Positions 4,529 to 18,868 of a stretch of 32,000 nucleotides of DNA are shown here, in pieces. Both the position numbers and the translations under genes were made by a program. The DNA comes from Ruminococcus albus 7 = DSM 20455 (GTDB taxonomy: Bacteria; Bacillota; Clostridia; Oscillospirales; Ruminococcaceae). The notes under the pieces were generated by a model that saw nothing but the letters and a program-made list of their open reading frames with translations, was not told the DNA's origin and ran no database searches. Numbering within the stretch: position 1 is the stretch's first letter; each line of letters starts with the position of its first letter. The stretch lies in NCBI RefSeq assembly GCF_000179635.2, contig NC_014833.1:3150001-3182000 (forward strand), given 5' to 3'.

Positions 4529-5317
4529 TTATTCGTCGTTTTCCCCTTCATCAGAGGGTTTTCTGGAATAGCTGTAACCGTAGCCATAGCCGTAGCCGTA
4601 TCTATAGCCATACCTGTACCTATAGCCGTACTTTCCGCCGTATTTTCCGCTCATAACAGAAACATTGTTAACAACTACACCAAGCAGCGAACCATCCGCC
4701 ATCTTTATCGCTTCGATAGCCTCCTGAAGAGCATCGTAAGTTGACTGCGCGAACTTTGCAATAAGCAGTACGCCTGCTATCGAATCCAGAAGTGTAAGAC
4801 AGTCGGTAACGATATTTATAGGGGGGGTATCAATGATGATGTAATCATAGTGAGCAGAAAGCTGATCCAACAGCTGCTTCATATTATCCGAACCCAGCAT
4901 TTCTGAAGGGTTGGGAGGGATAGGACCGCAGGTAACTATATCGAGATTGTCGATAACATTGTGGTGTACTATCTCCTTAAAGGTGTTGGTACCGCTTATC
5001 AGCGTAGAAAGTCCAAGATCATTCGTCAGTGAGAATACTCTGTGCTGAACAGGCTTTCTCAAGTCACCGTCGATCAACAGTACATGGTTATTGTTCTGTG
5101 CGAGAGTTATGGCGATATTTGCAGCTACTGTGGATTTACCCTCAGAAGCCAGTGCACTGGATATAGCAAATATCTTATTCTTTTTGGTAGAAAGAGCAAA
5201 GGAGATATTGGTTCTAAGGTTCTTGTATGCCTCAGTAACAGGGAAAGCCACATTCTTATCCATAAGTGTTCTTCTTCTGTTCCTGTTACCGCCAGGGATC
5301 TTCTTAGTATTTGCCAT
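4529..5317 (-). CDS. CpsD/CapB-family bacterial tyrosine kinase (BY-kinase) with a long C-terminal Tyr cluster
   Basis: Walker A (SALASEGKST), Walker A' (LLIDGDLRKP) and Walker B (YIIIDTPP) are present. The C-terminal tail is YGGKYGYRYRYGYRYGYGYGYGYSYS. Confidence 0.9.
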   Translation of the reverse strand: MANTKKIPGGNRNRRRTLMDKNVAFPVTEAYKNLRTNISFALSTKKNKIFAISSALASEGKSTVAANIAITLAQNNNHVLLIDGDLRKPVQHRVFSLTNDLGLSTLISGTNTFKEIVHHNVIDNLDIVTCGPIPPNPSEMLGSDNMKQLLDQLSAHYDYIIIDTPPINIVTDCLTLLDSIAGVLLIAKFAQSTYDALQEAIEAIKMADGSLLGVVVNNVSVMSGKYGGKYGYRYRYGYRYGYGYGYGYSYSRKPSDEGENDE

Positions 5318-6104
5318 ACTTGCCGTTTCCTCCCCTCTCGTCCATGAAAATGTCGGGTATCTCTGCGAGGACAGGTACGCCGAAACGTTCCTTTATATCC
5401 TCACCGCTCTTAACTGTATTATCAAAGAAGCTGGTGATCAGCGCGAAACCTACAGACACTGCAAGACCTGCGATAAGACCGAGCATCAGATATTTTGATA
5501 TATTGGGTCCGCTGGGTGTTGTCGGCACCTTAGGAGGTGATACCGTTTCAACCGAACCTGCCTTGGTGGTACGTGTGATGACTTCCTGAGCAAGCTCTGA
5601 GATATAGGAACATATATCTGCCGAGAACTTAGGCACCTGGCTGGTAACTGTTACCTGAAGCACCTCAGTATTATTTACTGCAGATATATTTATAAGCCTT
5701 TTGATCTGTCCGTAGGGTATATACTCATTGCCCTTTTCATCGACAGATATGGTGAAGTAGTTCTTGAGATCGTCTACATCATAATCTTTAAGCAGCTTAT
5801 CTGAGATAGACTCATACAGCAGCGGATCGTCAAGTATTACGATATATGTTGTCGCAAGGCTTCTCGCAGTATTAAGATCCTGAGCGTTTATAAGATTATC
5901 ATCATTATCCTGATCACCGGTCTTACCGTTTGTTACGTATATCTTAATGCTGGCAGTATACTGGAGAGGCAGTACGAACTTTGCATAGCTGTATCCCACG
6001 ATACCTGCAAGTATCGTAACAACGATTATCATTCTGATATGGCTGAGCAGTATGCCCAGTATTTCCTGTATACTTATCTCTTTTCCTTCCATTATTTGCA
6101 ACAC
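5304..6104 (-). CDS. Wzz/CpsC-type chain-length determinant and tyrosine-kinase modulator
   Basis: 266 aa with an N-terminal TM helix, an extracytoplasmic domain and a C-terminal TM helix. It overlaps the kinase gene by 14 nt, the classic CpsC-CpsD arrangement of Firmicutes. Confidence 0.85.
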   Translation of the reverse strand: MLQIMEGKEISIQEILGILLSHIRMIIVVTILAGIVGYSYAKFVLPLQYTASIKIYVTNGKTGDQDNDDNLINAQDLNTARSLATTYIVILDDPLLYESISDKLLKDYDVDDLKNYFTISVDEKGNEYIPYGQIKRLINISAVNNTEVLQVTVTSQVPKFSADICSYISELAQEVITRTTKAGSVETVSPPKVPTTPSGPNISKYLMLGLIAGLAVSVGFALITSFFDNTVKSGEDIKERFGVPVLAEIPDIFMDERGGNGKYGKY

Positions 6105-6189
6105 CTACCTGATAATTTGACCTGATATTTTATTTAGACGATGTCCCTGCCAAGAGACAGCACGGACACATATAATAACGCACTATATA

Positions 6190-6218
6190 AGTATACACTA
6201 TACCGCGGATTTTGTCAA
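6190..6218 (-). promoter_or_regulatory. Sigma-A type promoter for the wzz/BY-kinase pair
   Basis: Minus-strand TTGACA (6213-6218), a 17-nt spacer, then TATACT (6190-6195), about 85 nt upstream of the start at 6104. Confidence 0.55.
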
Positions 6219-6304
6219 TCGCATTAACGCCAAATTTTCCATGTATAAAAATGTTTTATTTAATTATACTGTCAAAGCTTCGCAATATTATGGGCGGCAG
6301 TCTG

Positions 6305-7066
6305 TCAATAGCCGAGCAGTTCTCTCATTACCCAGCCAAAAGTTCCGTTATAGCTGGTATATACCCATACGTTGCCGTCAGGGCCTACAGTTTCTCCTAT
6401 ACCGAGCACCGAATATCCGTCGGGTATAGTAGTCTTTATGTCATAATCCTTGGACGGTCCGTATCTCAGGTTCAAATAAGTAGTATCTGAGGTAACGGTA
6501 TATTTTCTGCCTGAATCATATCTCATATCAGGCTTCATCTCAAACATCTTATCCGGCGCAAAAGATGTGGTTGTGACCGCAGAAGATCTCCTTGTGGCAC
6601 GTGCCGAAGGATCTTCTATGGCTATCGTTCCGTTCGCGGTGGTGGTAGTCTTTTCAGCACTCACGGTCACAGCAGGTGCAGTAGTGCCGTTATGTTCCGG
6701 CAGTGAATAGTAGGTCTTCGCCACGGTCCGCTGTGTTGCGCGGATATCTTCGTCCACATCATCACTGAACAGCTGATCATTCTCCAGCGTACCTGTCACG
6801 GTAGTGGTGGTAGTATAATTACCGTCTGCATCGCCGTCATCAGCATCAATATCACCAACAGCAAAGGTAGCAGTCTTGGTAGTATGCACCGAACGCTTTG
6901 TGTAGGATACGCCCGAAGTGAATATAGGCTCAGTTTCAGAAGAATCGCCCTTGCCCACCTGACCGCAGCTGCCAAGAGCAGCCATTGTCAACACTGCAAT
7001 AATTACTTTCCAGAAATTTTTACACATACTGATCTTTCCTTTCAAGCCGGTCGTCTGCTTTCTCAT
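6305..7066 (-). CDS. Lipoprotein with a Thr-rich linker and a C-terminal bacterial SH3 domain
   Basis: The signal peptide carries the lipobox LGSCG. The C-terminus YLNLRYGPSKDYDIKTTIPDGYSVLGIGE...WVYTSYNGTFGWV matches the SH3_3 pattern. The start overlaps the upstream stop by 4 nt (ATGA). Confidence 0.7.
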   Translation of the reverse strand: MRKQTTGLKGKISMCKNFWKVIIAVLTMAALGSCGQVGKGDSSETEPIFTSGVSYTKRSVHTTKTATFAVGDIDADDGDADGNYTTTTTVTGTLENDQLFSDDVDEDIRATQRTVAKTYYSLPEHNGTTAPAVTVSAEKTTTTANGTIAIEDPSARATRRSSAVTTTSFAPDKMFEMKPDMRYDSGRKYTVTSDTTYLNLRYGPSKDYDIKTTIPDGYSVLGIGETVGPDGNVWVYTSYNGTFGWVMRELLGY

Positions 7067-7866
7067 ATCCCTCCAAGCAGACGCGCAGCGTTACCCGAAA
7101 ATATCTTTTCCTTGTCATCATCGGAAATACGCAGCCGCATTATCTTTTTCTTTATCTCAAAAGGGCTGTCCCACGGGATATCGCTGGCAAACAGTATCCT
7201 GTCAGCGCCGTGTTTCCTTATGATCTTCTCCATCAAACTGTCAGGAAGGTATCTGCCTGTGAAAGCTGTATCAAAATACACCTCTCCGTCAACGCCCGCA
7301 AGTATCTCATGCACCTGCTGGTGACAGTCATTTCCGCCGAGATGTGCCAGTATCACCTTAAGGTGAGGATGCTTTTTCAGCATACGCAAAGCGGCCTCGG
7401 GCGGACAGTGTATCTTTGAAGGCGAAAATACATCGAACCCGGCGTGCAGCACAACAGGCAGACCGCGGCGCTCTATCTCATCATACAAAAGATCCACTCT
7501 GTCCTCATCGACCATAAATCCCTGATAATCAGGGTGAAGCTTGATACCGCGAAGCCCCAGCGATACTATCCTGTCCAGTTCTCCGGGGATATCCTCCGTA
7601 TCCGGGTGTACAGTACCGAAGCTTATGAATCTGCCTCCGTTATTTTCGGCACACCAGTCGTTTATCACTTTCACCTGCGAAGGGCGGGTAGCCACTGACA
7701 GCAGTACTCCCCTATCTATGCCCCATTCATCCAGCCGTGCCTCGGTAGTTTCTATAAAGCCGTCCGTCAGCGGTTCTATGTCAGCGCGGTCTTTCAGCTG
7801 GGTTATTGCTTTTTCGGCTATTTTAGGTGCAAAACAATGCACGTGGAAATCTATAGTCAGCATCAA
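7063..7866 (-). CDS. Amidohydrolase-2 / TIM-barrel metal-dependent hydrolase family protein
   Basis: N-terminal IDFHVHCF (HxH metal motif), internal ILAHLGG, and a late FASDIPW Asp. Together these fit the PF04909-like amidohydrolase pattern. Confidence 0.7.
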   Translation of the reverse strand: MMLTIDFHVHCFAPKIAEKAITQLKDRADIEPLTDGFIETTEARLDEWGIDRGVLLSVATRPSQVKVINDWCAENNGGRFISFGTVHPDTEDIPGELDRIVSLGLRGIKLHPDYQGFMVDEDRVDLLYDEIERRGLPVVLHAGFDVFSPSKIHCPPEAALRMLKKHPHLKVILAHLGGNDCHQQVHEILAGVDGEVYFDTAFTGRYLPDSLMEKIIRKHGADRILFASDIPWDSPFEIKKKIMRLRISDDDKEKIFSGNAARLLGGI

Positions 7867-7978
7867 CGCCTCCCTGTCTGTTTATATCACAGCGAATATT
7901 ATAGCACAAAACCTCCCCGTATTCAAGTAAGGTCACAGAACTTTCGTTTTTTTCCATACATATATCACATAAATCAGC

Positions 7979-8007
7979 TTGCATTAACGCAAAAAATGTG
8001 CTATAAT
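7979..8007 (+). promoter_or_regulatory. Sigma-A promoter with an extended -10, for the 8081-10644 operon
   Basis: TTGCAT (7979-7984), a 17-nt spacer ending in TGc, then TATAAT (8002-8007). The RBS GGAGGA precedes the ATG at 8081. Confidence 0.6.
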
Positions 8008-8080
8008 TATTAAGTATAATAAAGATCAGCCGCAGATCACAGAAATTCAAACTTTATCTGCGCAACGGAGGAAAGTATCA

Positions 8081-8623
8081 ATGGACAGTTTCAAGGAACA
8101 GATAATCAGAAAAGAAAATACAAGCAAGGACAGCACTATGCGCTTTCTCATAGCATTTGCCTGTGTAGCACTGTCATTCGCGGTGATAATGTTCACCATA
8201 ATGCTCTCGGGATTTTTTCCGATGGCACTATTCATATCAGGATTGATAGTTTACGGCGGAGTACATCTTATACAGAACCTGAACCTGGAATATGAATACA
8301 TATTCACCAACGGTGACCTGGATATAGACAAGGTCATAGCTGCAAGGAGCAGAAAGCATCTTGCAACGCTGAAAGTCAACGATGCCACCGACATAGGTGA
8401 ATACAAAGGCAGTGACAGCGGCAGCAGGACAATAATAATGGCTTCTGCAATGAACAGCGAGATGCAGGACTGGTATATGGACATAAAGCACGCTGATCTT
8501 GGGGATGTAAGGCTGATATTCACCCCTGATGACGATATGCTCAGGGTGATAAAGACCCACCTGCCCCGCACCATCCGCAGCAAGGTAAATGTATCCGACA
8601 AGCCCGCAGAGGACTTTGAATAA
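8081..8623 (+). CDS. Uncharacterised two-TM membrane protein
   Basis: 180 aa with two hydrophobic helices (FLIAFACVALSFAVIMFTIML and MALFISGLIVYGGV) followed by a soluble domain (LEYEYIFTNGDLDIDKV). It has a strong RBS, and its stop overlaps the acpS start (TAATG). Confidence 0.6.
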   Translation: MDSFKEQIIRKENTSKDSTMRFLIAFACVALSFAVIMFTIMLSGFFPMALFISGLIVYGGVHLIQNLNLEYEYIFTNGDLDIDKVIAARSRKHLATLKVNDATDIGEYKGSDSGSRTIIMASAMNSEMQDWYMDIKHADLGDVRLIFTPDDDMLRVIKTHLPRTIRSKVNVSDKPAEDFE

Positions 8624-9000
8624 TGGCTGCTTTCACAGTAGGCACTGACCTGGTGGAGGTAGGACGCATACGCAGGAGCTGTCAGAGAGAGAGCTTTATC
8701 AACAGAGTGTATGCGGAAGCCGAAAAGGAATACTTCAAAAAATTACGCGACCCTGCAGAGAGCATGGCAGGCTCATGGGCAGCCAAGGAGGCATTCTCCA
8801 AAAGCCTGGGTACGGGAGTCAGGGGCTTTGAACTTAACGAAGTGGCTGTGGTAAGGGATGAACTGGGCTGTCCGCACCTTGAGCTTACGGGCAGTGCAGA
8901 ACAGATCGCTGCTGACCGCGGACTGGATTTCTCCCTTTCAATAACTCATACAAAGGAATATGCATCGGCAGTTGTGATAGCTTTCCCGAAAGAGGGATGA
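8623..9000 (+). CDS. acpS: Holo-ACP synthase (4'-phosphopantetheinyl transferase)
   Basis: 125 aa. GTDLVEVGRIRR, AAKEAFSKSLGTG and SITHTKEYASAVV match the AcpS family along its full length. Confidence 0.9.
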   Translation: MAAFTVGTDLVEVGRIRRSCQRESFINRVYAEAEKEYFKKLRDPAESMAGSWAAKEAFSKSLGTGVRGFELNEVAVVRDELGCPHLELTGSAEQIAADRGLDFSLSITHTKEYASAVVIAFPKEG

Positions 9001-9054
9001 CTATCATTATATAAAAAATCAAGCGGCATGACCGCAGGATAAGGAGGAACGGAT

Positions 9055-10644
9055 ATGATTAAAGATAGGATACTGACAGTTGAGCAGATGAAAGCCTGTG
9101 AAAAAAGGTCGGAAGAACTGGGTTTTCCCGCTTCTGAGCTTATGGCTAATGCCGGCAAAGTGCTTGCTTCGCACGTTATCAGCGAGACACGCAGAGAAGA
9201 CCAGCCGGATACACCCGAAGTAGTTATACTTGCAGGCAAAGGCAATAACGGCGGCGACGGTCTTGTAGCAGCTAATTTTCTTAACAAGGCAGGCATAAGC
9301 ACCAAGATCGTACTATGCTGCGGCAAGCCTGCGACACCGGCGGCGATCAATGCTTACGATTCACTCAACAAGGATATCGATGTACTTTTCTACGACGGCG
9401 ACAACTCCCATCCATGGGCTGCTGCCATAGATGATGCTTCACTGGTAGTCGATGCCATTTTCGGTACAGGTTTCACAGGTGAGATCGAAAGAGATCTGCA
9501 GCCTCTGTTCATAAAGCTCAACACCTATGCCAGACGTGTCATAGCCTGTGATATCCCCTCCGGTGTAGATGCAAGGAGCGGTCAGGCAGGCGTACTTGCA
9601 GTACAGGCTGATATCACCGTTACCATGCACGCCAAGAAGCTTGGTATGCTGCTTTCTCCTGCAAAGTATTTCTGCGGATATATAAGGGTCGAGGATATAG
9701 GCATCCCTGCTGCGGCAACAACGGGAGATCCTATAATGGCAAATGAGATATACTCAAAGGCCTGTATGCTGAACAACCAGCAGCTCGGCGCTAAATTCCT
9801 GACCTCACGCAAGCCTTGGGCGCACAAGGGGACCTTCGGCAAGCTGGTATGCGTATGCGGAAGCAAAAGGTATATCGGTGCTGCAGGCATTTCAGCTTCT
9901 GCCGCTATGAGAATGGGTGTTGGTCTGGTTGAGATATGCACTCCCGGCAAAGTGATAGATTCACTTTCAGCTAATCTGTATGAATGCATATTCAACGAGA
10001 TGAAGACAGACGAAAACGGCTTCATGACCTCAGAAAACGTACCTTCCATACTCGATAGCCTGAAAGATGCAAAGGCACTGCTTCTCGGCTGCGGCCTTGG
10101 AAATACGCCTGAGACACAAAAGCTGGTAGCTGAGCTCATAGAGAAGTCGCCTGTACCTGTGATACTTGACGCTGACGGAATAAATTCGCTTGTACCGAAT
10201 ATAGATGTACTGTTGAAGAAACAGTCAACGGTGATACTCACTCCTCATCCGGGCGAACTGGCAAGGCTCTGCGGTGTTTCACAGGATGAAGTACTGACAG
10301 ACAGACTGAAATATTCCTACGGTTTCTCAAAGAAATACGGTGTCACGGTGGTGTCCAAGTCCTCTGAGACTATCGTATGCTGTGCTGACAGAACAGAGAT
10401 CGTCACTGCAGGCAACACTGCACTGTCCAAGGGCGGCTCCGGAGATCTGCTGGCAGGTCTGATAGCTTCACTTACAGCTCAGACCAAGCGTTCCTCGCTT
10501 ATCAACTGCATACTTGCCTGCATGGTACTGGGCAGATGTGCAGAGGAACTATGCGCAAAGCGTTCTGAGCGCGGTATACTCGCAAGGGATATAGTTGCTT
10601 ATCTGCCGTTCTTCCTGAAACATCTGGAAGGCGGAGAGGATTGA
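9055..10644 (+). CDS. nnr: Bifunctional NAD(P)H-hydrate epimerase / ADP-dependent dehydratase
   Basis: 529 aa. The YjeF_N motif is ILAGKGNNGGDGLVAA. The C-terminal carbohydrate-kinase-like domain carries TPHPGELARL and GGSGDLLAG. Confidence 0.9.
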   Translation: MIKDRILTVEQMKACEKRSEELGFPASELMANAGKVLASHVISETRREDQPDTPEVVILAGKGNNGGDGLVAANFLNKAGISTKIVLCCGKPATPAAINAYDSLNKDIDVLFYDGDNSHPWAAAIDDASLVVDAIFGTGFTGEIERDLQPLFIKLNTYARRVIACDIPSGVDARSGQAGVLAVQADITVTMHAKKLGMLLSPAKYFCGYIRVEDIGIPAAATTGDPIMANEIYSKACMLNNQQLGAKFLTSRKPWAHKGTFGKLVCVCGSKRYIGAAGISASAAMRMGVGLVEICTPGKVIDSLSANLYECIFNEMKTDENGFMTSENVPSILDSLKDAKALLLGCGLGNTPETQKLVAELIEKSPVPVILDADGINSLVPNIDVLLKKQSTVILTPHPGELARLCGVSQDEVLTDRLKYSYGFSKKYGVTVVSKSSETIVCCADRTEIVTAGNTALSKGGSGDLLAGLIASLTAQTKRSSLINCILACMVLGRCAEELCAKRSERGILARDIVAYLPFFLKHLEGGED

Positions 10645-10660
10645 TATCTGCCAATTATAC

Positions 10661-10695
10661 AAGCGGCTCTTCTTCACCGGAGAGCCGCTTTTTTC
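10661..10695 (+). terminator. Rho-independent terminator after nnr
   Basis: A perfect 10-bp stem, aagcggctct / agagccgctt, is followed by TTTTTT. Confidence 0.7.
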
Positions 10696-10707
10696 GGGAG
10701 GTATGTT

Positions 10708-11208
10708 ATGAAGACAATTATTGGGATGACCGCACTGTGTACATCTATAGCGGCAATACTACTTACAGGCTGCGGCGCTGAAAGGACAGCCGCAAAGCCT
10801 GCCGCGCTCGATAAAAACTTTGACAAGACCGCGGTAATAGAATACTTCGGACGGGAATACACAGCAAAGCTGCGACGGGGCGGAGAAGGTGTATGGGAGT
10901 GCAGTTTCATATCACCCGACACCGTCGCCGGATTGAAAATGACATCTGACAGTGAAGTCTGCCGCATGGAGTTTGATGATATTGAATACCTGTGCAGCCG
11001 CGGACAGTATCCCGAATACGGGCTGTTGCCTCTGCTGACAGGAAGTCTGGATGCTCTCATCACAGGAGAAGATATAAGCTGCACCGAGCATAGAGATCAC
11101 ACCGAGGAAAAGGGCGAGACAGCAGGTCAGCCCTTCACCGCAAACATCAGCGGCGGCGAGCTCCTTGAACTGGAGATAGAGGGATGTATGAAAGCTGAGT
11201 TCACATAA
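10708..11208 (+). CDS. Small lipoprotein of unknown function
   Basis: The signal peptide MKTIIGMTALCTSIAAILLTGCGA carries a lipobox. The RBS GGGAGG sits 7 nt upstream. Confidence 0.65.
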   Translation: MKTIIGMTALCTSIAAILLTGCGAERTAAKPAALDKNFDKTAVIEYFGREYTAKLRRGGEGVWECSFISPDTVAGLKMTSDSEVCRMEFDDIEYLCSRGQYPEYGLLPLLTGSLDALITGEDISCTEHRDHTEEKGETAGQPFTANISGGELLELEIEGCMKAEFT

Positions 11209-11256: not shown

Positions 11257-12264
11257 TTACTTTTCAAGTACAACTGTACCGTCCTCAGCATACTCGATTA
11301 TGCCGTCGGAATCTGCATCAACAAGTTCTTCCTTCTCATAGGAAGCTCCTCCGGGGATAGCGCCCTCAGGGAGTGCGATAACGTTACCGTTCTCGTCCTC
11401 AAATACGATGTCAGCGATGTACATATCGATATCGCTCTTTGTTACCCAGCTCATAACTGTAGTAAAGTTGGTTTCGTTAGCGTGGTTGAACTTAGCATTT
11501 TCTTTAATACCTATCCTTGCATTAACTACGCTGTGAGCCCACTGGTTGCACCAGCCGTCACCTGCATCGGAAGCCATTTCGATAGTAGCCATATTGCCGT
11601 TCCATTCGCCTGCATTGTTAGTACCCATAGCGCCGCCGAACCAGCCTACGGTAACAGGGCCAAGGCCATCATCATATATAGCCTGCTCACGTGCGATAGT
11701 AACTATCTCCATCTTGATATTGAAGATATCATCCATCAGCTCGGGCTGTGCTGCAAACAGCTTGTTCATATCGAACTTGACCTTCAGTACCTTATGACCG
11801 TTGTTCTGAGTATCCTCGGTATCATAGATCTCCTCGTCGCACTTCAGCATAGGCACGCCTGCAACTTCCTGTATTGAGAAGTTTATCTTAGCCTCATCAC
11901 CTGTATAATCAGCATCGCCGGGCTTAGCTTCTTCCGAATCCTCATAGAAAGCGGATACTATGCCCTTGATATCGCTGTCTGCTGCAAATTTAACAGATGC
12001 ATTATCATAGCACTCGAGAGAATCTGCGATAGCGGAAAGAGGCTTCCAGTTGGAATTATCAACTTCGCTGCCCTTATCCTCCTCAGCAGTAGTTTCATCC
12101 TCTGTGGTCTCATCTGCAGTAGTGTCCTCAGGTGCTGTAGTTTCAGCAGCGGTGGTAGTTGTGGTCGCAGCCTTTGACTCAGTATTATCTTCCGTTTTTC
12201 CGCACGAAGTGAATACCATTGCAGTAATTGTAAGAGCTGCGGTCATCGCAAGTATCTTTTTCAT
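11257..12264 (-). CDS. Secreted lipoprotein of unknown function with a Thr/Glu-rich linker
   Basis: I placed the start at MKKILAMTAALTITAMVFTSCGK (lipobox) because GGAGGA lies 8 nt upstream; the listed start at 12279 is 5 codons further up. The C-terminal ~250 aa form a beta-rich globular domain with no motif I can name. Confidence 0.7.
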   Translation of the reverse strand: MKKILAMTAALTITAMVFTSCGKTEDNTESKAATTTTTAAETTAPEDTTADETTEDETTAEEDKGSEVDNSNWKPLSAIADSLECYDNASVKFAADSDIKGIVSAFYEDSEEAKPGDADYTGDEAKINFSIQEVAGVPMLKCDEEIYDTEDTQNNGHKVLKVKFDMNKLFAAQPELMDDIFNIKMEIVTIAREQAIYDDGLGPVTVGWFGGAMGTNNAGEWNGNMATIEMASDAGDGWCNQWAHSVVNARIGIKENAKFNHANETNFTTVMSWVTKSDIDMYIADIVFEDENGNVIALPEGAIPGGASYEKEELVDADSDGIIEYAEDGTVVLEK

Positions 12265-12325
12265 TTTTATATCCTCCATACATATTATTTATATGGGACA
12301 AAAGCCCCGATTTATTTACTATTGT

Positions 12326-12354
12326 ATTATATCACTTTTCACATATCTTTTCAA
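12326..12354 (-). promoter_or_regulatory. Sigma-A promoter for the 11257-12264 lipoprotein gene
   Basis: Minus-strand TTGAAA (12349-12354), a 17-nt spacer, then TATAAT (12326-12331). Confidence 0.55.
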
Positions 12355-12434: not shown

Positions 12435-12477
12435 AAACAAAACCACAGCACTTCCATACTTAACAGAAATGCCGTGG
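12435..12477 (-). terminator. Candidate terminator after the CheX-like gene
   Basis: In minus-strand RNA an 8-bp stem with one G-U pair (12470-12477 with 12443-12450) has a large loop and is followed by UUUUGUUU. Confidence 0.4.
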
Positions 12478-12491
12478 CTCTTATATCACTT

Positions 12492-13376
12492 TTATTCGGT
12501 AGAGATTATAAAATCTACTTCACCGAAACTGAATACAACAGGTATGCAGAATGCAGGCTTTTCAAAGCTGATCTTTGCATCCTCAACGACCTCCTGAGGT
12601 GTCATTGTCAGCTCTGCTCCGCCTTCATTTGACTGGTTTACAGCAAACAGACCGTTTACTACATTCAGGAATTCACCGACAGTCTCATTTTCAAATCCTG
12701 CGATATCCACGAAATTCTCACCTGCGAATCTCTTTGCGAACTCAAAGTAAACATCCTTATCCGCAGTGATGCAGGTAACCGCATCATATGTGCCTGTGAT
12801 GCGCTGCTTTATAAGGTTCTCAGCATCGAATTCTCTTATAACTATAGCTTCCAGTGGCGTAAAATCACCGTCTATGAATCTTATGATGTTCTTGAACATC
12901 ATAGTTACATAGTCTGTCAGCATTCTGGCATTCGATGCTTCCTCAAGATGATAGAACTCTGTTACCAGCTTGCTCAGGCTCTCATTCTTGCTGCCCTCAA
13001 GGTCACTGTCCGTCAGCTCATTATCAGACTTATAATCATTGATCGCCTGTTCAAACTGCGCGTTTGAAAGCACGCCGTTATTTACAAGGGTCTGTCCCAG
13101 CAGCAGATACTCGGTAGGCTGCTGTGAAAGCAGTTTGTCGACCTGCTCCTCGGTGACATACCCAAGCTCTACCGCAAGATCACCGAAACGCTTATCAACA
13201 CTCTGCTGAGTTATATTAACGTGCTCGACCTGATCTGCGGTCATGAGTCCCGCATTGATAGCCAGCACGCCGAGACGCATCCTTGTATGCTTTTTGTCTT
13301 CAAAAGCCTGTGTCAGATCTTCAGAAGTGACCAGCTTTTTATTGAGAAGATATCCGCCAAAAAATTGTGCAAACAA
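12492..13376 (-). CDS. Fusion protein: N-terminal MshEN/T2SSE_N-like repeats (putative c-di-GMP binding) plus a C-terminal CheX/CheC-type phosphatase domain
   Basis: The start is TTG, with the SD AAGGGGG 6 nt upstream. Residues 34-57 (RLGVLAINAGLMTADQVEHVNITQ) and 63-86 (RFGDLAVELGYVTEEQVDKLLSQQ) are separated by 5 residues. The C-terminal motif is E231-x3-E235-x2-N238 ... P260. Confidence 0.65.
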   Translation of the reverse strand: MFAQFFGGYLLNKKLVTSEDLTQAFEDKKHTRMRLGVLAINAGLMTADQVEHVNITQQSVDKRFGDLAVELGYVTEEQVDKLLSQQPTEYLLLGQTLVNNGVLSNAQFEQAINDYKSDNELTDSDLEGSKNESLSKLVTEFYHLEEASNARMLTDYVTMMFKNIIRFIDGDFTPLEAIVIREFDAENLIKQRITGTYDAVTCITADKDVYFEFAKRFAGENFVDIAGFENETVGEFLNVVNGLFAVNQSNEGGAELTMTPQEVVEDAKISFEKPAFCIPVVFSFGEVDFIISTE

Positions 13377-13757
13377 TTACAGCACCCCCTTAGCGGCGTT
13401 TTCAAGTATAGCCTTTGTATCCTCATCGGATATGGGCTTTTGCAGAAAATCTGCAGCGCCTGCGCGCAATGCCTCCTTCAGATGTCCCTGAGTACCAACG
13501 CTTGAAGCCATAACGACCTTAGCATCAGGGTCAAACTCAATTATCTGCTTGAGTGCCTCGATGCCTGTTATTCTTGGCATAATAATATCCATAAATACCA
13601 CATCCGGCTTGTTCTCCTTGTATTTGGCAACAGCCTCTTCACCATCAGCGGCTTCAAATACTTCATTGATACCCAGTGCAGATATAGTCATGCTCATCTT
13701 TTTTCTAGCGAACATGGAATCGTCACAAATGAGGACTTTGAGATCTTGTATAACCAT
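13377..13757 (-). CDS. Single-domain CheY-like response regulator (receiver only)
   Basis: 126 aa. The acidic pocket DD (LICDDS), phospho-acceptor D (VVFMDIIMP), S/T (MASSVG) and K (FLQKP) are all present. The RBS is GGGAGG. Confidence 0.9.
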   Translation of the reverse strand: MVIQDLKVLICDDSMFARKKMSMTISALGINEVFEAADGEEAVAKYKENKPDVVFMDIIMPRITGIEALKQIIEFDPDAKVVMASSVGTQGHLKEALRAGAADFLQKPISDEDTKAILENAAKGVL

Positions 13758-13952
13758 ATATATACCTCCCTTGTACTTAGCTGAGGCAGTACAAAAGCAA
13801 ACAGCAAAATTTAAATTTACATTTACTATAAATCATGCTACCTCTTCTTAATAATTCTAACATATTTTGACGTAAAAATCAACAGTTTTTTATGCTGTTT
13901 TAATAGTGATTATGCATAAATTTTTTGCAATATTATTTTGCCGATTACCCAC

Positions 13953-13981
13953 TTGACTTTCGGTGCACTATGTGATATAAT
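13953..13981 (+). promoter_or_regulatory. Sigma-A promoter for tRNA-Leu
   Basis: TTGACT (13953-13958), a 17-nt spacer, then TATAAT (13976-13981), about 27 nt upstream of the mature tRNA 5' end. Confidence 0.6.
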
Positions 13982-14007: not shown

Positions 14008-14091
14008 GCCGCTGTGGCGAAATTGGCAGACGCAGCAGACTCAAAATCTGCCGGTAGCAATACCGTACCGGTTCAAGTCCGGTCAGCGGCA
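14008..14091 (+). tRNA. tRNA-Leu (anticodon CAA)
   Basis: It folds by hand into a cloverleaf. The acceptor stem is GCCGCTG/CAGCGGC with discriminator A. The anticodon stem GCAGA/TCTGC carries the loop CTCAAAA. It has a long variable arm and a T arm ACCGG-TTCAAGT-CCGGT. No CCA is encoded. Confidence 0.93.
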
Positions 14092-14098
14092 TACAGGT

Positions 14099-14134
14099 AA
14101 ACGCAGACTCTTTCGGGTCTGCGTTTTTGTTTTA
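14099..14134 (+). terminator. Rho-independent terminator after tRNA-Leu
   Basis: The stem acgcagac / gtctgcgt (14101-14108 with 14117-14124) is followed by TTTTTGTTTT. Confidence 0.8.
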
Positions 14135-14204
14135 TTCGTATCTACGGAGCGTGGATTGACTTTTCGCCTGCTGTGAGTTAAAATATAGGCAAGAGGTGAG
14201 GATA

Positions 14205-14792
14205 ATGGATCAGATAAAAACTGGGGCTCTGATAAGGCAGCTGAGACTTGCGGCAGGGCTTACTCAGAAACAGCTGGCAGAAAAAGTCAACGTAAGCGAC
14301 AAGGCGGTATCAAAATGGGAATGCGGCAACGGTGCCCCCGATGTTTCTCTGCTTACCGACCTAGCGGAGATATTCGGCACAGATGTGAACACCCTGCTTT
14401 CGGGCAGTAAAGATATAAACGAAAGTGAGAAAGGCGATATGAAAAAGATAAGATTTTACGTATGCAAGGACTGCGGCGGCATAATGACTTCGACTTCGGA
14501 GGCTTCTGTCAGCTGCTGCGGTAACAGGCTTTCACCCATAGTGCCCAAAAAGGCGGAGGGTGATGATGTTTTGAAAACCGAGGTGATCGACGGCGAACTG
14601 TTCGTGACTGCCGACCATGAGATGACAAAGCAGCATTATATCTCATTTCTGGCGTATGTCTGCGACAGTACGGTGATGATGTTCAGGCAGTATCCCGAAT
14701 GGAAGATGCAGGCAAGGCTGCCCCTTGTGCGCAGGGGAAGGCTGATATGGTACTGCACCGAACACGGGGCTTATTTTCAGGATATCAGATAA
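14205..14792 (+). CDS. XRE-family HTH transcriptional regulator fused to a desulfoferrodoxin-like (desulforedoxin plus SOR-like) domain
   Basis: I placed the start at ATG 14205, preceded by the RBS GAGGTGAGG. The HTH is LTQKQLAEKVNVSDKAVSKWECG. The C-terminal part has C87-x2-C90-x13-C104-C105, then H138-x5-H144 (HEMTKQHYI) and C184-x2-H187 (YCTEHG). Confidence 0.75.
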   Translation: MDQIKTGALIRQLRLAAGLTQKQLAEKVNVSDKAVSKWECGNGAPDVSLLTDLAEIFGTDVNTLLSGSKDINESEKGDMKKIRFYVCKDCGGIMTSTSEASVSCCGNRLSPIVPKKAEGDDVLKTEVIDGELFVTADHEMTKQHYISFLAYVCDSTVMMFRQYPEWKMQARLPLVRRGRLIWYCTEHGAYFQDIR

Positions 14793-14858: not shown

Positions 14859-15776
14859 TTATTTATCCTCTTCCTCGTCATAAGATGTCCCTGAATAGCT
14901 TACCTCTGCACCTACTACCCATTCAGGACGTTCATCGTTTTCGTAAGTCGGATCCGGATACCTGCCTATATACTTTGAATCTTCGCTTTGGCGCCATAGA
15001 ACAGTAAAATTCCAGTTCTCGATATCGCCCTCAAACTTTACGCCAACTATTCCGTCGTTACCGTATGCAAGTTCTTTTGCTGCCAACTCGGCAGCCTCCT
15101 GCTCGGTAGCCTCGGACAGTTTACCTTGTATTTCCATATCCGTAAGATATTCAGCCACTGCATTATAGCCTGTTTTTGCATTTCCGTTTGCGGTTTTCAG
15201 CTTTGATTTGGACACATAACCACCTGACAGCACATCAACTAAGGCATCACCGAAAGAACCGCCGTTTCCGTCTGAAGTACCTGCATTTTCAGATGCACTG
15301 CACTCGCCCTCTGCATTTACATTCCACGCGGGGCTGTCTTCAGGGGTTTGTGCAGGGTCGGGATATTGTCCGACTATCTCGGGTTTGTCAGCTGAACGGA
15401 ACTGCACTGTGAAGTTTAGAAAGCCATAGTCATTCGCTTCATCGAACCTTACGCCCACAGTGCCGTTTATATCGCAGTTATTTTCAAGTTCTTTGAGTGC
15501 GCGTTCCGTTGCTTCCTGCTCGGTCGCTTCCGAGATCCTGCCTTGTGTTTCCAGATCGGCAAGATATTCAGCTACTGCGTTGTAGCCTGTTTTAGTACAG
15601 CCGTTAGCCTTTTTGAGTATTTCCTCATCGGAAAGAGAAGTTCCGCTGTTTTCTTCCTGCGATGCTGCAGCTGCAGCGGAAGATGTTTCTTCTGCTGGTT
15701 TATCTTTATCTTTTGAGCAGGCTGTCATGCCAAGTGCTATAACTGCTGCTGTAATGAGTGCTGTTGTTCTTTTCAT
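14859..15776 (-). CDS. Lipoprotein made of two tandem copies of a ~100-aa domain of unknown function
   Basis: The signal peptide ends ...GMTAC. The internal repeat has a 139-aa offset: LKKANGCTKTGYNAVAEYLADLETQGRISEATEQEA... versus LKTANGNAKTGYNAVAEYLTDMEIQGKLSEATEQEA.... Both copies end in G.YPDP. Confidence 0.7.
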   Translation of the reverse strand: MKRTTALITAAVIALGMTACSKDKDKPAEETSSAAAAASQEENSGTSLSDEEILKKANGCTKTGYNAVAEYLADLETQGRISEATEQEATERALKELENNCDINGTVGVRFDEANDYGFLNFTVQFRSADKPEIVGQYPDPAQTPEDSPAWNVNAEGECSASENAGTSDGNGGSFGDALVDVLSGGYVSKSKLKTANGNAKTGYNAVAEYLTDMEIQGKLSEATEQEAAELAAKELAYGNDGIVGVKFEGDIENWNFTVLWRQSEDSKYIGRYPDPTYENDERPEWVVGAEVSYSGTSYDEEEDK

Positions 15777-16111: not shown

Positions 16112-18868
16112 TCAGATATCCTCAACGCACAGACCTGTGCCCTCGGCGGGTCTTATCTTTTTGAATACTATCTTATCCATATCAAGTCCGCCCAGACCGA
16201 AGTGAAGCCTGAATATAGTATACCGGGAGAACATGGGCATTTCTTCCACGGCGAAGGTCACGGGTTTTCCGCCTGTGCCGTTCCATGTGAATGTGCCCCA
16301 TGCAGTACCCATGCTGAATACGGTCACGGGCATCTGTGCAAGCTCGCTCTGTGTGGAGCTTGCTGTCATTTCCATGCGGTACTGACCGAACTGTGCCACA
16401 TCTACAGTGAAGCTGTAATCGAGATTTCTCTCGGTCTTAACACCACTCATATCTATGGTCAGGTCGCCGTCCAGCAGGAACACTCTGTCGCCCTCGCCGT
16501 CATCAACGGTCTCGGCAGGCTTGTTGATAACTTCAACAGCCTCGTCCTCGCCAAGCTTTCTTGCCATAGCATGAGTGCTCATCATAAATGAGAGTATGTT
16601 CCTTGCAGACCTCTGAAGTTCTGCGCGGGTAAGTCTGCCGTCTGCCAGTGCCGCTATAACATTGTCACTGCCGCTTTCACCGTCTGCGCATACCATATAA
16701 ACATCATTCTGCGCACGTACCATAGCCGCAAAATTGTTCTTGTCAGGAGCACAGCCGCGGTCATTGATATTTGCCCACCAGTCAGTCATGGTAAAGCCGT
16801 CAAAGCCCCACTGCTTGCGGAGTATCATAGTATTAAGGTCAAAGCTGCCTGCTGTCCAGAGACCGTTTACCTTACCGTAGGTCGTCATAACAGAACGTGC
16901 CTTGCTCTTTCGTACAGCTATCTCGAATCCTTTGAGGTATATCTCACGGAGCGCTCTCTCACTTGCTACGGAGTCGATGAAATGTCTGTTGGTCTCCTGA
17001 TTGTTGGCGCAGAAATGTTTTATAGTACCCTCAACGCCCACGCTGTGCAGACCTTCAAGTTCTGCCGCAGCCATTGTACCCGTCAGGAAGGGGTCTTCAG
17101 AAAAGTACTCGAAATTTCTGCCGTTGAGGGGGTGGCGGTGGATATTCATACCGGGTCCCAGCAGACAATCCACTTTATTTGCCCGCATCTCCAATCCGAG
17201 ATATGTGAAAAGCTCGGTGATAAGAGACTTGTTGAATGTTGCCGCGATGAGTGTACCGTTAGGCAGGCTGAATGCCTTTGTACCTACATCAAGACGCATT
17301 CCCGAAGGACCGTCCGAACAGCACCCTGCAGGTATGCCAAGTTCTTCCAGGTGCTTAGCCACACCTCCGAATGCCGCAGCCGTACCGGGAGTGACCTTTG
17401 GAGAACACATACCCTCGCCGCGCACAAGGCAGTTAAGGTCATTGTCATCAAGCTGTGCTATGAACTCATCAAGGGTGTTCTTACCATGGGCCACATCGGA
17501 AAGGGCTATACCCTTATCACCTGTATATGCTGTTTCCGCAGGCAGATATCCAAGTCTGCGTGCAGCTTCGTCAACCTTTGAAAGAGGGGTATCCTCATAG
17601 GAAAGACCCTCTGCGGTGCGAACCATCCTCTTGAAAGGCGTAACAGGTGCCAGTGCCTGTTCAAGCTGTTCGATGACCTTGGTAGAATCCAGTGTGAAAG
17701 CAAAGCATTCCTTTGCACTGCGCACATCACTGCCTGCATAGAATGTGTACTCTCCTGCTTCCTCTACCCATGCGAAGGCATTTCCTGTAATGCCGCTGTC
17801 ATCGTAGGAAGCTATATCACGCTCGGTGACTTCTATCGTCAGCGTCTGTTCTTCATTCGGTGCAAGTACCTTTGTCTTTTCAAATCCGCAAAGCACACGC
17901 GCAGCCTTGCCAAGCTTACAGTTGGGCGCTTCAAGGTATACCTGCACGACTTCCTTGCCTGCCGCACTGCCGATATTCTTCACTTTAGCAGTTATGACAA
18001 CACCGTCATCAGTCTTTCTGCCCTCGGCACTTATCTCAAACTGCGTATAGCTAAGTCCGTATCCGAAGGGGAATCTTACCCTGTCCTTTGCAAAGGTATC
18101 AAAGTATCTGTATCCCACGAAGATATCTTCAGCATAGATATCCACATCCCTGTTGTGGAAATTTTTGTCAGAGGGATAGTCTGTGATATCATAAGCGATA
18201 GTATCGGGCAGCTTGCCGCAGGGAGATACCTCACCCAGCAGCACCCTTGCAGTGCCTGTACCGCCTGTCATACCACCCTGCCATACATACATTACAGCAT
18301 CGGGTGAGAATTCGTCGATAAAGCCCATGTCGATTATATTGCCCACATTGAGCAGTATCACCATTTTGCTGAAATTATCCCTTACCTTGCGCAGCATAGC
18401 CTTTTCACCGTCTGTCAGCAGATAAGAACCTGCCTTGCAGCTGTTGTCCTGTTCCTCGCCTGCGGTGCGTCCTATAATACATATCGCTGTATCGGAACTC
18501 TCAGCCGCCCTTTTTACAAGGCTGTCATCAAGAGGCATCTCCTCCTGACACCAGGGCTCGCCGCCCCAGCCCTCGCCGTAATCGTAGGGATGTTCAGCAA
18601 CATAGTCCTTGTAAGCCTTCAGCACATCCTCATTGAGTTTTGCACCTGCTTCTATAAGGCCATCGGTTATTCCCGTGACCTTTGCAACATTCACCATTCC
18701 GCCAGAGCCCGTACCGCTTTTATAATAATCCAGCTGTATACGTCCGAAAACTGCCGTAACGGCATTTTTATCCAGCGGCAGGACGCCGTTGTTCACAAGC
18801 AGCACTGCGCCCTCAGCGTTTACCTCTGCTGCCTTTTCGAGATATTCGTTCCAATCAAGCTTTATCAT
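16112..18868 (-). CDS. Glycoside hydrolase family 3 beta-glucosidase/xylosidase-like enzyme with permuted domain order
   Basis: 918 aa. The GH3 C-terminal-type alpha/beta domain comes first (AVLLVNNGVLPL), then the Fn3-like domain (FGYGLSYTQFEI ... VVQVYL). The catalytic TIM-barrel domain follows (KHFCANNQETNR, GFDGFTMTDWW), then an extra ~150-aa beta-rich tail. Confidence 0.9.
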   Translation of the reverse strand: MIKLDWNEYLEKAAEVNAEGAVLLVNNGVLPLDKNAVTAVFGRIQLDYYKSGTGSGGMVNVAKVTGITDGLIEAGAKLNEDVLKAYKDYVAEHPYDYGEGWGGEPWCQEEMPLDDSLVKRAAESSDTAICIIGRTAGEEQDNSCKAGSYLLTDGEKAMLRKVRDNFSKMVILLNVGNIIDMGFIDEFSPDAVMYVWQGGMTGGTGTARVLLGEVSPCGKLPDTIAYDITDYPSDKNFHNRDVDIYAEDIFVGYRYFDTFAKDRVRFPFGYGLSYTQFEISAEGRKTDDGVVITAKVKNIGSAAGKEVVQVYLEAPNCKLGKAARVLCGFEKTKVLAPNEEQTLTIEVTERDIASYDDSGITGNAFAWVEEAGEYTFYAGSDVRSAKECFAFTLDSTKVIEQLEQALAPVTPFKRMVRTAEGLSYEDTPLSKVDEAARRLGYLPAETAYTGDKGIALSDVAHGKNTLDEFIAQLDDNDLNCLVRGEGMCSPKVTPGTAAAFGGVAKHLEELGIPAGCCSDGPSGMRLDVGTKAFSLPNGTLIAATFNKSLITELFTYLGLEMRANKVDCLLGPGMNIHRHPLNGRNFEYFSEDPFLTGTMAAAELEGLHSVGVEGTIKHFCANNQETNRHFIDSVASERALREIYLKGFEIAVRKSKARSVMTTYGKVNGLWTAGSFDLNTMILRKQWGFDGFTMTDWWANINDRGCAPDKNNFAAMVRAQNDVYMVCADGESGSDNVIAALADGRLTRAELQRSARNILSFMMSTHAMARKLGEDEAVEVINKPAETVDDGEGDRVFLLDGDLTIDMSGVKTERNLDYSFTVDVAQFGQYRMEMTASSTQSELAQMPVTVFSMGTAWGTFTWNGTGGKPVTFAVEEMPMFSRYTIFRLHFGLGGLDMDKIVFKKIRPAEGTGLCVEDI

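Follow-up and report, generated by a model that had tools for sequence, protein, structure and literature searches.

The N-terminal domain of Vibrio cholerae MshE (VcMshE), known as MshEN, binds cyclic di-GMP (c-di-GMP). Its ligand is contacted by the Arg at motif position 1, by the amide of Gly-3, which binds guanine, and by the Gln at position 24; Leu29 stacks on guanine, the MshEN_C subdomain contributes Asp108, and the substitution G40I in VcMshEN abolishes binding. Wang et al. (2016; PMC5013675) found MshEN fused to "phosphatase CheX", and Supplementary Table 4 of that paper (Nat Commun) lists the architecture (MshEN_N)2-CheX in Deltaproteobacteria and Firmicutes, with Geobacter lovleyi Glov_2742 (ACD96455) as the exemplar. 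Here we describe a locus of this type in Ruminococcus albus 7, within a 32-kb stretch of contig NC_014833.1 (hereafter the window). At positions 12492–13757, on the minus strand, a gene for a stand-alone CheY-type receiver lies directly before a gene for a 294-amino-acid (aa) protein in which four MshEN-type repeats precede a CheX domain, as a first-pass annotation of the DNA had it. The reading towards which we lean, with modest confidence and on sequence comparison and structure models, is that CheY is paired with a dedicated CheX phosphatase whose fused MshEN_N sensor would let c-di-GMP set the lifetime of phosphorylated CheY (CheY-P). Since (MshEN_N)2-CheX is listed by Wang et al., the locus is a member of a known, apparently uncharacterised architecture and not a new system; what is new here is the strict linkage to CheY, including a permuted order and fusions, the probable placing of the ligand site in the central repeat pair, and the breadth of the family in Clostridia.

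The likeness to the 2016 entry is one of architecture. Glov_2742 has the same domain architecture and the listed distribution covers the phylum of R. albus, although the entry comes without biochemistry, CheY linkage, uneven repeat quality or Clostridia-wide spread. Table S5 of the same study counts for R. albus 7 30 GGDEF and 9 GGDEF+EAL proteins (39 GGDEF-containing), 5 EAL, 6 HD-GYP, no PilZ and two MshEN proteins (PMC5013675), and the 294-aa protein is probably one of these two. With the MshEN domain of VcMshE (5HTL) it shares the tandem 24-residue motifs and the 5-residue spacer (34% identity, 1.1 Å over 55 residues). Unlike VcMshE, it has no MshEN_C or T2SSE_N and no ATPase, it carries two extra degenerate hairpins and Asn54 in place of Leu29, and its isolated core pair has a profile score about half that of VcMshE. 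Several MshEN-type motifs per polypeptide are also found in the GSPII domains of Thermus thermophilus PilF (6F8L, 8PDK, 8PFA), and PilF 300–384 aligns with three consecutive repeats of the 294-aa protein; unlike the latter, PilF uses these domains, every one of them with a C-terminal subdomain, to regulate a type IV pilus ATPase. On the phosphatase side the relatives are the CheX proteins of Thermotoga maritima (1XKO/1SQU), Borrelia burgdorferi (3HZH) and Desulfovibrio (3HM4), which have the same alpha/beta fold and a single E-x2-N on the equivalent helix, with N-x21-P spacing as in 3HM4; a CheY encoded alongside is a further common trait. The 294-aa protein differs from these in its low sequence identity (12–19%), the fused N-terminal sensor of ~140 residues and a gene outside any che operon. 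The nearest functional analogue is the V. cholerae PlzC-CheX pair (PMC12799141), in which a c-di-GMP receptor protein controls a CheX phosphatase acting on CheY; the receptor there, however, is PlzC, a PilZ protein encoded apart from CheX, and its inhibition of CheX in trans is reportedly independent of c-di-GMP binding, whereas here the presumed receptor is MshEN-type and covalently fused. CdgR was considered as an (MshEN_N)2 precedent and rejected, as it is a ComFB-domain protein.

The C-terminal part of the 294-aa protein is recognised as CheX both by profile and by fold. It was proposed by the first-pass annotation as a CheX-type phosphatase, and the Pfam CheX profile (PF13690) does match residues 193–283 at 29.7 bits (gathering score 27). 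In a full-length AlphaFold2 (AF2) model built on 119 homologues (predicted local distance difference test score, pLDDT, 89.1; predicted template modelling score, pTM, 0.80), the ~150 C-terminal residues superpose on CheX structures of Desulfovibrio, Thermotoga, Shewanella, Vibrio and Borrelia, the last in a CheX-CheY3-BeF3 complex. Foldseek comparison with seven CheX or CheC-like structures gave E values of 2.8e-9 to 4e-6 and template modelling (TM) scores of 0.70–0.80 normalised to the target, among them 3hm4 (E 2.8e-9, TM 0.76), 1squ/1xko (TM 0.74–0.80, ~150 aligned columns) and 3hzh_B, the CheX chain of the Borrelia CheX-CheY3 complex; the Thermotoga, Desulfovibrio, Vibrio and Borrelia CheX lie at TM 0.74–0.80, and CheC, FliY and FliM fall well behind. 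E231, E235, N238 and P260, earlier singled out as an active-site pattern, are all present. Two of them, E235 and N238, do not vary among the 119 close homologues, and in a broader set of 137 sequences (136 representatives plus the query, 27–49% identity) the corresponding positions are E/D in 131 and N in 129. E231 does not share this conservation, the position being Ala or Asp in most relatives. In 113 Lachnospiraceae-type sequences E235 and N238 are again invariant, and D231 there completes a D-x3-E-x2-N-x21-P pattern. The N-to-P spacing, at first taken to be one residue short, is no deviation: in crystallised CheX 3hm4 the motif reads D90-x3-E94-x2-N97-x21-P119, aligns residue for residue with the 294-aa protein, and has the same 21 residues. 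The E-x2-N site, on the second long helix, is the only one; no further copy is visible on reading the sequence of helix 150–168.

We note a separate segment of very strong conservation on the first long CheX helix, N-I-I-R-F-I-G-D-D-F-T-P (residues 159–174; ~12855–12902, minus strand), which lies outside the known CheX active site. R166 is found in every one of the 119 close homologues and in at least 90% of a 133-sequence set (27–49% identity), and F167 and P174 are invariant among the close homologues only. The segment could be an interface with the sensor or with CheY.

From its sequence, the upstream gene encodes a genuine CheY. Pfam Response_reg matches the 126-aa protein at 93.6 bits, its nine best PDB matches are all CheY (83–98 bits, with other receiver types at 65 bits or less), and the E values are 4.7e-27 against T. 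maritima CheY 1tmy and 1.7e-22 against B. burgdorferi CheY3 (3hzh_A), a substrate of CheX. The residues D12, D13, D57, S85 and K107 are present by residue check and by alignment to 1tmy.

The linkage of the CheX fusion to CheY is strict. In all 90 Oscillospiraceae loci for which 20-kb neighbourhoods were compared (80 GTDB species representatives and 10 assembly contigs), the fusion gene is directly preceded by a receiver gene on the same strand, the gap ranging from -4 to 56 nt. These loci have no third conserved neighbour, whether che, pil, GGDEF/EAL or other: with antisense shadow open reading frames (ORFs) set aside, no family is common to more than 12 of them. The pair is found in unrelated neighbourhoods in four lineages. 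In a divergent Lachnospiraceae branch (Kineothrix and others) the order is CheX and then receiver (REC) in both unfused loci examined, and in two natural fusions (P0270 and P0374) an (MshEN)-CheX protein is joined to a receiver in the order CheX-REC. The family as a whole forms at least 319 clusters at 50% identity (E ≤ 1e-30), and relatives with the EFLN..NGLF motif occur in at least 305 species genomes, a count that is a lower bound and biased towards this motif because the locus search used the subset sharing it, drawn from the diverse 133-sequence alignment. GGDEF or EAL genes lie near only ~6 of 93 loci, with no enrichment. In one Clostridiales contig (L092) the CheX homologue (10001–10885) is divergently adjacent to genes for a large TPR-GGDEF protein and a GGDEF-EAL protein (4568–9774, minus strand), a local and not a general tie to c-di-GMP turnover.

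The N-terminal part of the 294-aa protein consists of four 24-residue repeats with 5-residue spacers, a period of 29 (Table 1). The second and third were described exactly in the first-pass annotation: R34–Q57 and R63–Q86 are each 24 residues, with QSVDK between them, and in both, motif positions 1, 3, 10 and 24 are occupied by Arg, Gly, Gly and Gln. Scored at the key-contact positions (R/K at 1, hydrophobic at 2, Gly at 3 and 10, hydrophobic at 17 and 21, Gln at 24), repeat 3 agrees throughout and repeat 2 at all but position 21, where it has Asn54. The proposal of an MshEN-like c-di-GMP motif is borne out by NCBIfam NF053729 (c-di-GMP_motif; "cyclic di-GMP-binding domain, MshE-related"), which scores 89.5 bits on the 294-aa protein (cut-off 38, E = 8.5e-26) and 86.8 bits on VcMshE as a control; its best single stretch is residues 63–112. 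The relaxed 24-residue motif of Wang et al. occurs once in a six-frame translation of the whole window, in repeat 3. The register is shared with VcMshE: phmmer and profile alignments place residues 32–86 on VcMshE 7–61 (R34 on R9, Q57 on Q32, R63 on R38 and Q86 on Q61), such that the tandem pair with its spacer forms a 53-residue unit in register with VcMshE 9–61.

Taken in isolation, the repeat pairs score 39.1 (1+2), 43.5 (2+3) and 46.2 (3+4) bits on NF053729, values that do not discriminate among the three pairings, and the choice was therefore made on conservation and on Foldseek identity values. Among the 137 sequences, repeat 2 has K/R at position 1 in 127, Gly at position 3 in 132 and Gln at position 24 in 132, and repeat 3 has R/K at position 1 in 112, Gly at position 3 (G65) in 129 and Gln at position 24 (Q86) in 131. 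Position 1 is F, Y, L or I in repeat 1 and variable in repeat 4, and position 24 is variable in repeat 1 and Y or F in repeat 4. Within the Lachnospiraceae subfamily (113 sequences), repeat 4 has Val or Ile in place of Gly at position 3, a change analogous to G40I of VcMshEN. An AF2 model of residues 1–120 (pLDDT 92.8) has as its top PDB match by Foldseek the c-di-GMP-bound MshE structure 5htl, over 55 columns at a root mean square deviation of 1.1 Å and 34% identity (probability 1.00; the E value is only 0.17 because the match is short). This identity fits only the register of residues 32–86, that is repeats 2+3 (19/55); 3+4 would give 38% and 1+2 27%. The next matches are c-di-GMP-bound PilF-GSPIIB structures at 21–24% identity, against 28% expected for PilF in the 3+4 register. 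In repeats 2 and 3 the modelled first helix begins at motif position 2, and in repeats 1 and 4 three residues before it, a difference that is consistent with an open N-cap in the central pair only. Family conservation and the AlphaFold/Foldseek comparison together make R34–Q57 with R63–Q86 the likely c-di-GMP site, the same pair that had been picked out as a ligand site from the sequence; by their sequences, the outer repeats 1 and 4 are degenerate flanks. The whole eight-helix array of four hairpins has no PDB counterpart in the Foldseek search with the model of residues 1–120.

The domain identities, the motif register and the conservation of contact and catalytic residues are thus established computationally, and so is the CheY linkage; several points nonetheless count against a c-di-GMP-regulated phosphatase. 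Pfam T2SSE_N (PF05157), the profile by which the first-pass annotation had suggested the repeats be checked, has no match to the 294-aa protein at E ≤ 1, and NF053729 was needed instead. The alpha/beta MshEN_C subdomain is absent, the repeats leading in the AF2 model into a linker and then the CheX domain; for both reasons the protein falls in the class "MshEN_N only" of Wang et al. The isolated pairs score at about half the level of VcMshE, and position 21 of repeat 2, Leu29 in VcMshE, is Asn or His across the family. The Pfam CheX match exceeds its gathering score by a narrow 2.7 bits, and at E ≤ 1 a search of PDB sequences with the family profile reaches MshE and PilF but no CheX, which leaves Pfam and the fold comparison as the basis of the CheX assignment. 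The pair has no linked kinase, methyl-accepting chemotaxis protein (MCP) or output gene: as had already been noted for CheA, MCP and flagellar genes, the 32-kb window contains no che, MCP, flagellar or pilus genes besides the pair itself, and CheA, CheW, MCP and flagellar genes are not conserved in the neighbourhoods of the 90 loci. Finally, the literature searched yielded no experiments, whether on binding or on enzyme activity, with any MshEN-CheX family member; the novelty implied by the first-pass annotation is nonetheless overstated, the architecture itself having been catalogued in 2016.

An unlikely alternative, though the most serious one, sees in the four repeats a degenerate MshEN_N relic that does not bind c-di-GMP and serves as a dimerisation or docking scaffold for a CheX phosphatase acting constitutively on its partner CheY. 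Isolated pair scores of 39–46 bits, barely over the NF053729 cut-off, the agreement of only one of the four repeats with the relaxed motif, and the Asn or His at position 21 would all be expected of a relic, and Wang et al. (PMC5013675) list some proteins in which no binding motif is recognisable and report that Xanthomonas XpsE has lost binding. A relic does not readily account for the retention, in repeats 2 and 3 and down to 27% identity, of the basic residue at position 1, Gly at 3 and Gln at 24, which are ligand contacts not needed for the hairpin fold, when repeats 1 and 4 tolerate other residues at the same positions; nor for the superposition of the repeat 2+3 model on ligand-bound MshE at 1.1 Å.

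It is improbable, in our judgement, that the repeats form two MshEN_N bundles (1+2 and 3+4), as the label (MshEN_N)2 implies, with c-di-GMP on 3+4 or on both and not on the central pair. Such an arrangement would suit the position of the best NF053729 stretch at residues 63–112, the top isolated score of pair 3+4, the alignment of PilF GSPII domains to residues 60–114, and the conservation of G94 and G101 in the R. albus-type subfamily. It is disfavoured by the Val or Ile at position 3 of Lachnospiraceae repeat 4, equivalent to the binding-abolishing G40I, by the non-canonical or variable residues at positions 1 and 24 of repeats 1 and 4, and by Foldseek identity values that fit the 2+3 register and not 3+4. 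We give little credence to the idea that the CheX-like domain is primarily a docking module for CheY-P, like the FliM/FliY middle domains, with CheY-P as the input and the c-di-GMP-binding protein or its occupancy as the output: the CheC/CheX/FliM fold family does include non-catalytic CheY-P binders, FliM middle domains are among the weaker Foldseek matches and the pair lacks a linked downstream target gene, but the catalytic Glu and Asn are nearly invariant family-wide, the D/S-x3-E-x2-N-x21-P pattern is fully canonical in the Lachnospiraceae branch, and the best structural matches are true CheX.

In the reading we favour, a CheX phosphatase regulated by its fused MshEN_N sensor, the phosphoryl group of CheY would come from an unlinked kinase or from acetyl phosphate. 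The fused CheX domain, with E235 and N238 on its active-site helix, would dephosphorylate CheY-P, as its fold, catalytic residues and linkage suggest. The N-terminal 118 residues are modelled as an eight-helix array of four MshEN_N-type hairpins, of which the outer two would be degenerate structural flanks, and c-di-GMP bound to the central bundle might alter CheX activity or its access to CheY-P, as the architecture suggests, whereby the cellular c-di-GMP level would set CheY-P lifetime. The scheme follows the one put forward in the first-pass annotation, each computationally checkable element of which is supported; from these elements we infer the binding of c-di-GMP, the phosphatase activity on this CheY and a coupling of the two that might run in either direction. 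If the 294-aa protein does bind c-di-GMP and control CheY-P, it would form a direct link from the c-di-GMP network to two-component phosphorylation in a major gut and rumen fibre degrader, and would provide a function for a widespread orphan CheY/CheX pair.

R. albus is classically a non-motile coccus, and the output of CheY-P there is therefore probably not a flagellar motor; a non-flagellar output is plausible. The type IV pili of R. albus bind cellulose (reviewed in PMC13234629), and we found nothing usable in the literature on R. albus chemotaxis, CheA, MCP or c-di-GMP. A speculative and rather unlikely extension is that in non-motile cellulolytic Ruminococcus the cassette acts as a stand-alone converter of c-di-GMP into phosphorylation without chemotaxis machinery, in which CheY would be phosphorylated by acetyl phosphate or an orphan kinase, c-di-GMP would set CheY-P lifetime by way of CheX, and the output would be non-flagellar, such as type IV pilus adhesion to cellulose. 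Were this so, the protein would be one of very few protein-level c-di-GMP effectors amid ~50 turnover proteins and no PilZ, and in its sensor one canonical bundle and two degenerate hairpins would form an eight-helix arrangement not seen before.

Table 1. Features of the cheY–CheX-fusion locus, in window positions.
Feature	Position	Strand	Basis or remark
cheY, 126-aa stand-alone CheY-type receiver	13377..13757	-	Identical to R. albus 7 ADU23281.1 (annotated response regulator or CheY)
294-aa protein, four MshEN_N-type repeats and CheX domain	12492..13376	-	Identical to R. albus 7 ADU23280.1 / WP_013499395.1; ORF, profile matches, AF2 model, Foldseek
Repeat 1 (residues 5–28), degenerate: Phe at position 1, Lys at 10 and 24	13293..13364	-	Two mismatches to relaxed motif
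Repeat 2 (residues 34–57), R34-L-G...G43...Q57, proposed first half of c-di-GMP site	13206..13277	-	Aligns with VcMshE R9–Q32
Repeat 3 (residues 63–86), R63-F-G...G72...L83...Q86, proposed second half of c-di-GMP site	13119..13190	-	Aligns with VcMshE R38–Q61
Repeat 4 (residues 92–115), degenerate: Leu at position 1, Tyr at 24	13032..13103	-	Motif comparison
CheX-fold domain (~residues 140–294)	12495..12959	-	Foldseek; Pfam CheX over residues 193–283
Putative catalytic E235-F-L-N238 (E-x2-N motif of CheC/CheX phosphatases)	12663..12674	-	Aligned to E94/N97 of crystallised CheX 3hm4
Shine-Dalgarno-like AAGGGGG, within cheY 3' end, 8 nt ahead of TTG start	13385..13391	-	Sequence reading
Sigma-70-like promoter candidate upstream of cheY, TTGATT-17-TAGAAT with extended TG	13854..13882	-	Consensus scan only; consensus match
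Intrinsic-terminator-like 19-bp hairpin and U-run, 11 nt past stop of 294-aa gene	12435..12481	-	RNA fold

The two genes are immediately contiguous. The TAA stop of cheY (13379–13377) abuts, in the same frame and with zero gap, the TTG start (13376–13374) of the gene for the 294-aa protein, which carries the annotation "chemotaxis protein CheX"; the TTG start is supported by an MF-x-QFFG N-terminus that homologues share at the same position. A zero-nucleotide gap between stop and start is also seen in 18 of the 90 related loci. As the cheY stop is directly followed in frame by this TTG, a single stop-codon change would give a REC-(MshEN)-CheX fusion; the natural fusions found (P0270 and P0374) run CheX-REC, opposite to the order that loss of a cheY stop codon would give. 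The terminator-like hairpin folds at -29.5 kcal/mol (z = -6.3), with none of 200 shuffles folding as well, and the next gene downstream has its own promoter match (11/12) at 12354–12326 in the consensus scan. With a promoter-like site upstream, the terminator hairpin downstream and a separate promoter match for the next gene, cheY and the CheX-fusion gene look, on sequence features, like a two-gene (bicistronic) unit.

Between the promoter region of cheY and a divergent HTH_3 gene (14196–14792) is a tRNA-Leu(CAA) gene (14008–14091, plus strand), which has its own strong promoter match (13953–13981) and terminator (14099–14126). It was the only hit of an RNA search of the window, which returned no c-di-GMP riboswitch or other RNA element. 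Other contigs that encode an identical CheX protein, L001 and L002 among them, have wholly different genes upstream of cheY, including those for a teichoic-acid-type glycerophosphotransferase, a sulfatase and a nucleotidyltransferase, from which it follows that the cassette sits at a strain-variable junction beside the tRNA gene. Two predicted lipoproteins flank the cassette (11257–12279 and 14859–15776, both minus strand), and both contain a low-complexity linker rich in Thr, Glu and Ala and belong to no Pfam family; the downstream one, whose gene is that with the 11/12 promoter match, is 340 aa here and 335 aa in near-identical strains.

Further away, a Wzz chain-length-determinant gene and an AAA_31/ParA-type ATPase gene, resembling a bacterial tyrosine (BY) kinase, overlap by 14 nt at 4529–6104 (minus strand), with genes for an SH3_3 protein and an Amidohydro_2 protein upstream of them. 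Judged by its domains, the pair resembles a module of exopolysaccharide chain-length determinant and tyrosine kinase. MshEN_N occurs in some EpsG-type kinases (Wang et al., PMC5013675), and there is no such Pfam match in the BY-kinase-like ATPase at this position. The window also encodes a 918-aa glycoside hydrolase family 3 (GH3) glycosidase (16112–18868, minus strand) of permuted domain order, in which Glyco_hydro_3_C and an Fn3-like domain come first and the catalytic Glyco_hydro_3 N-domain last.

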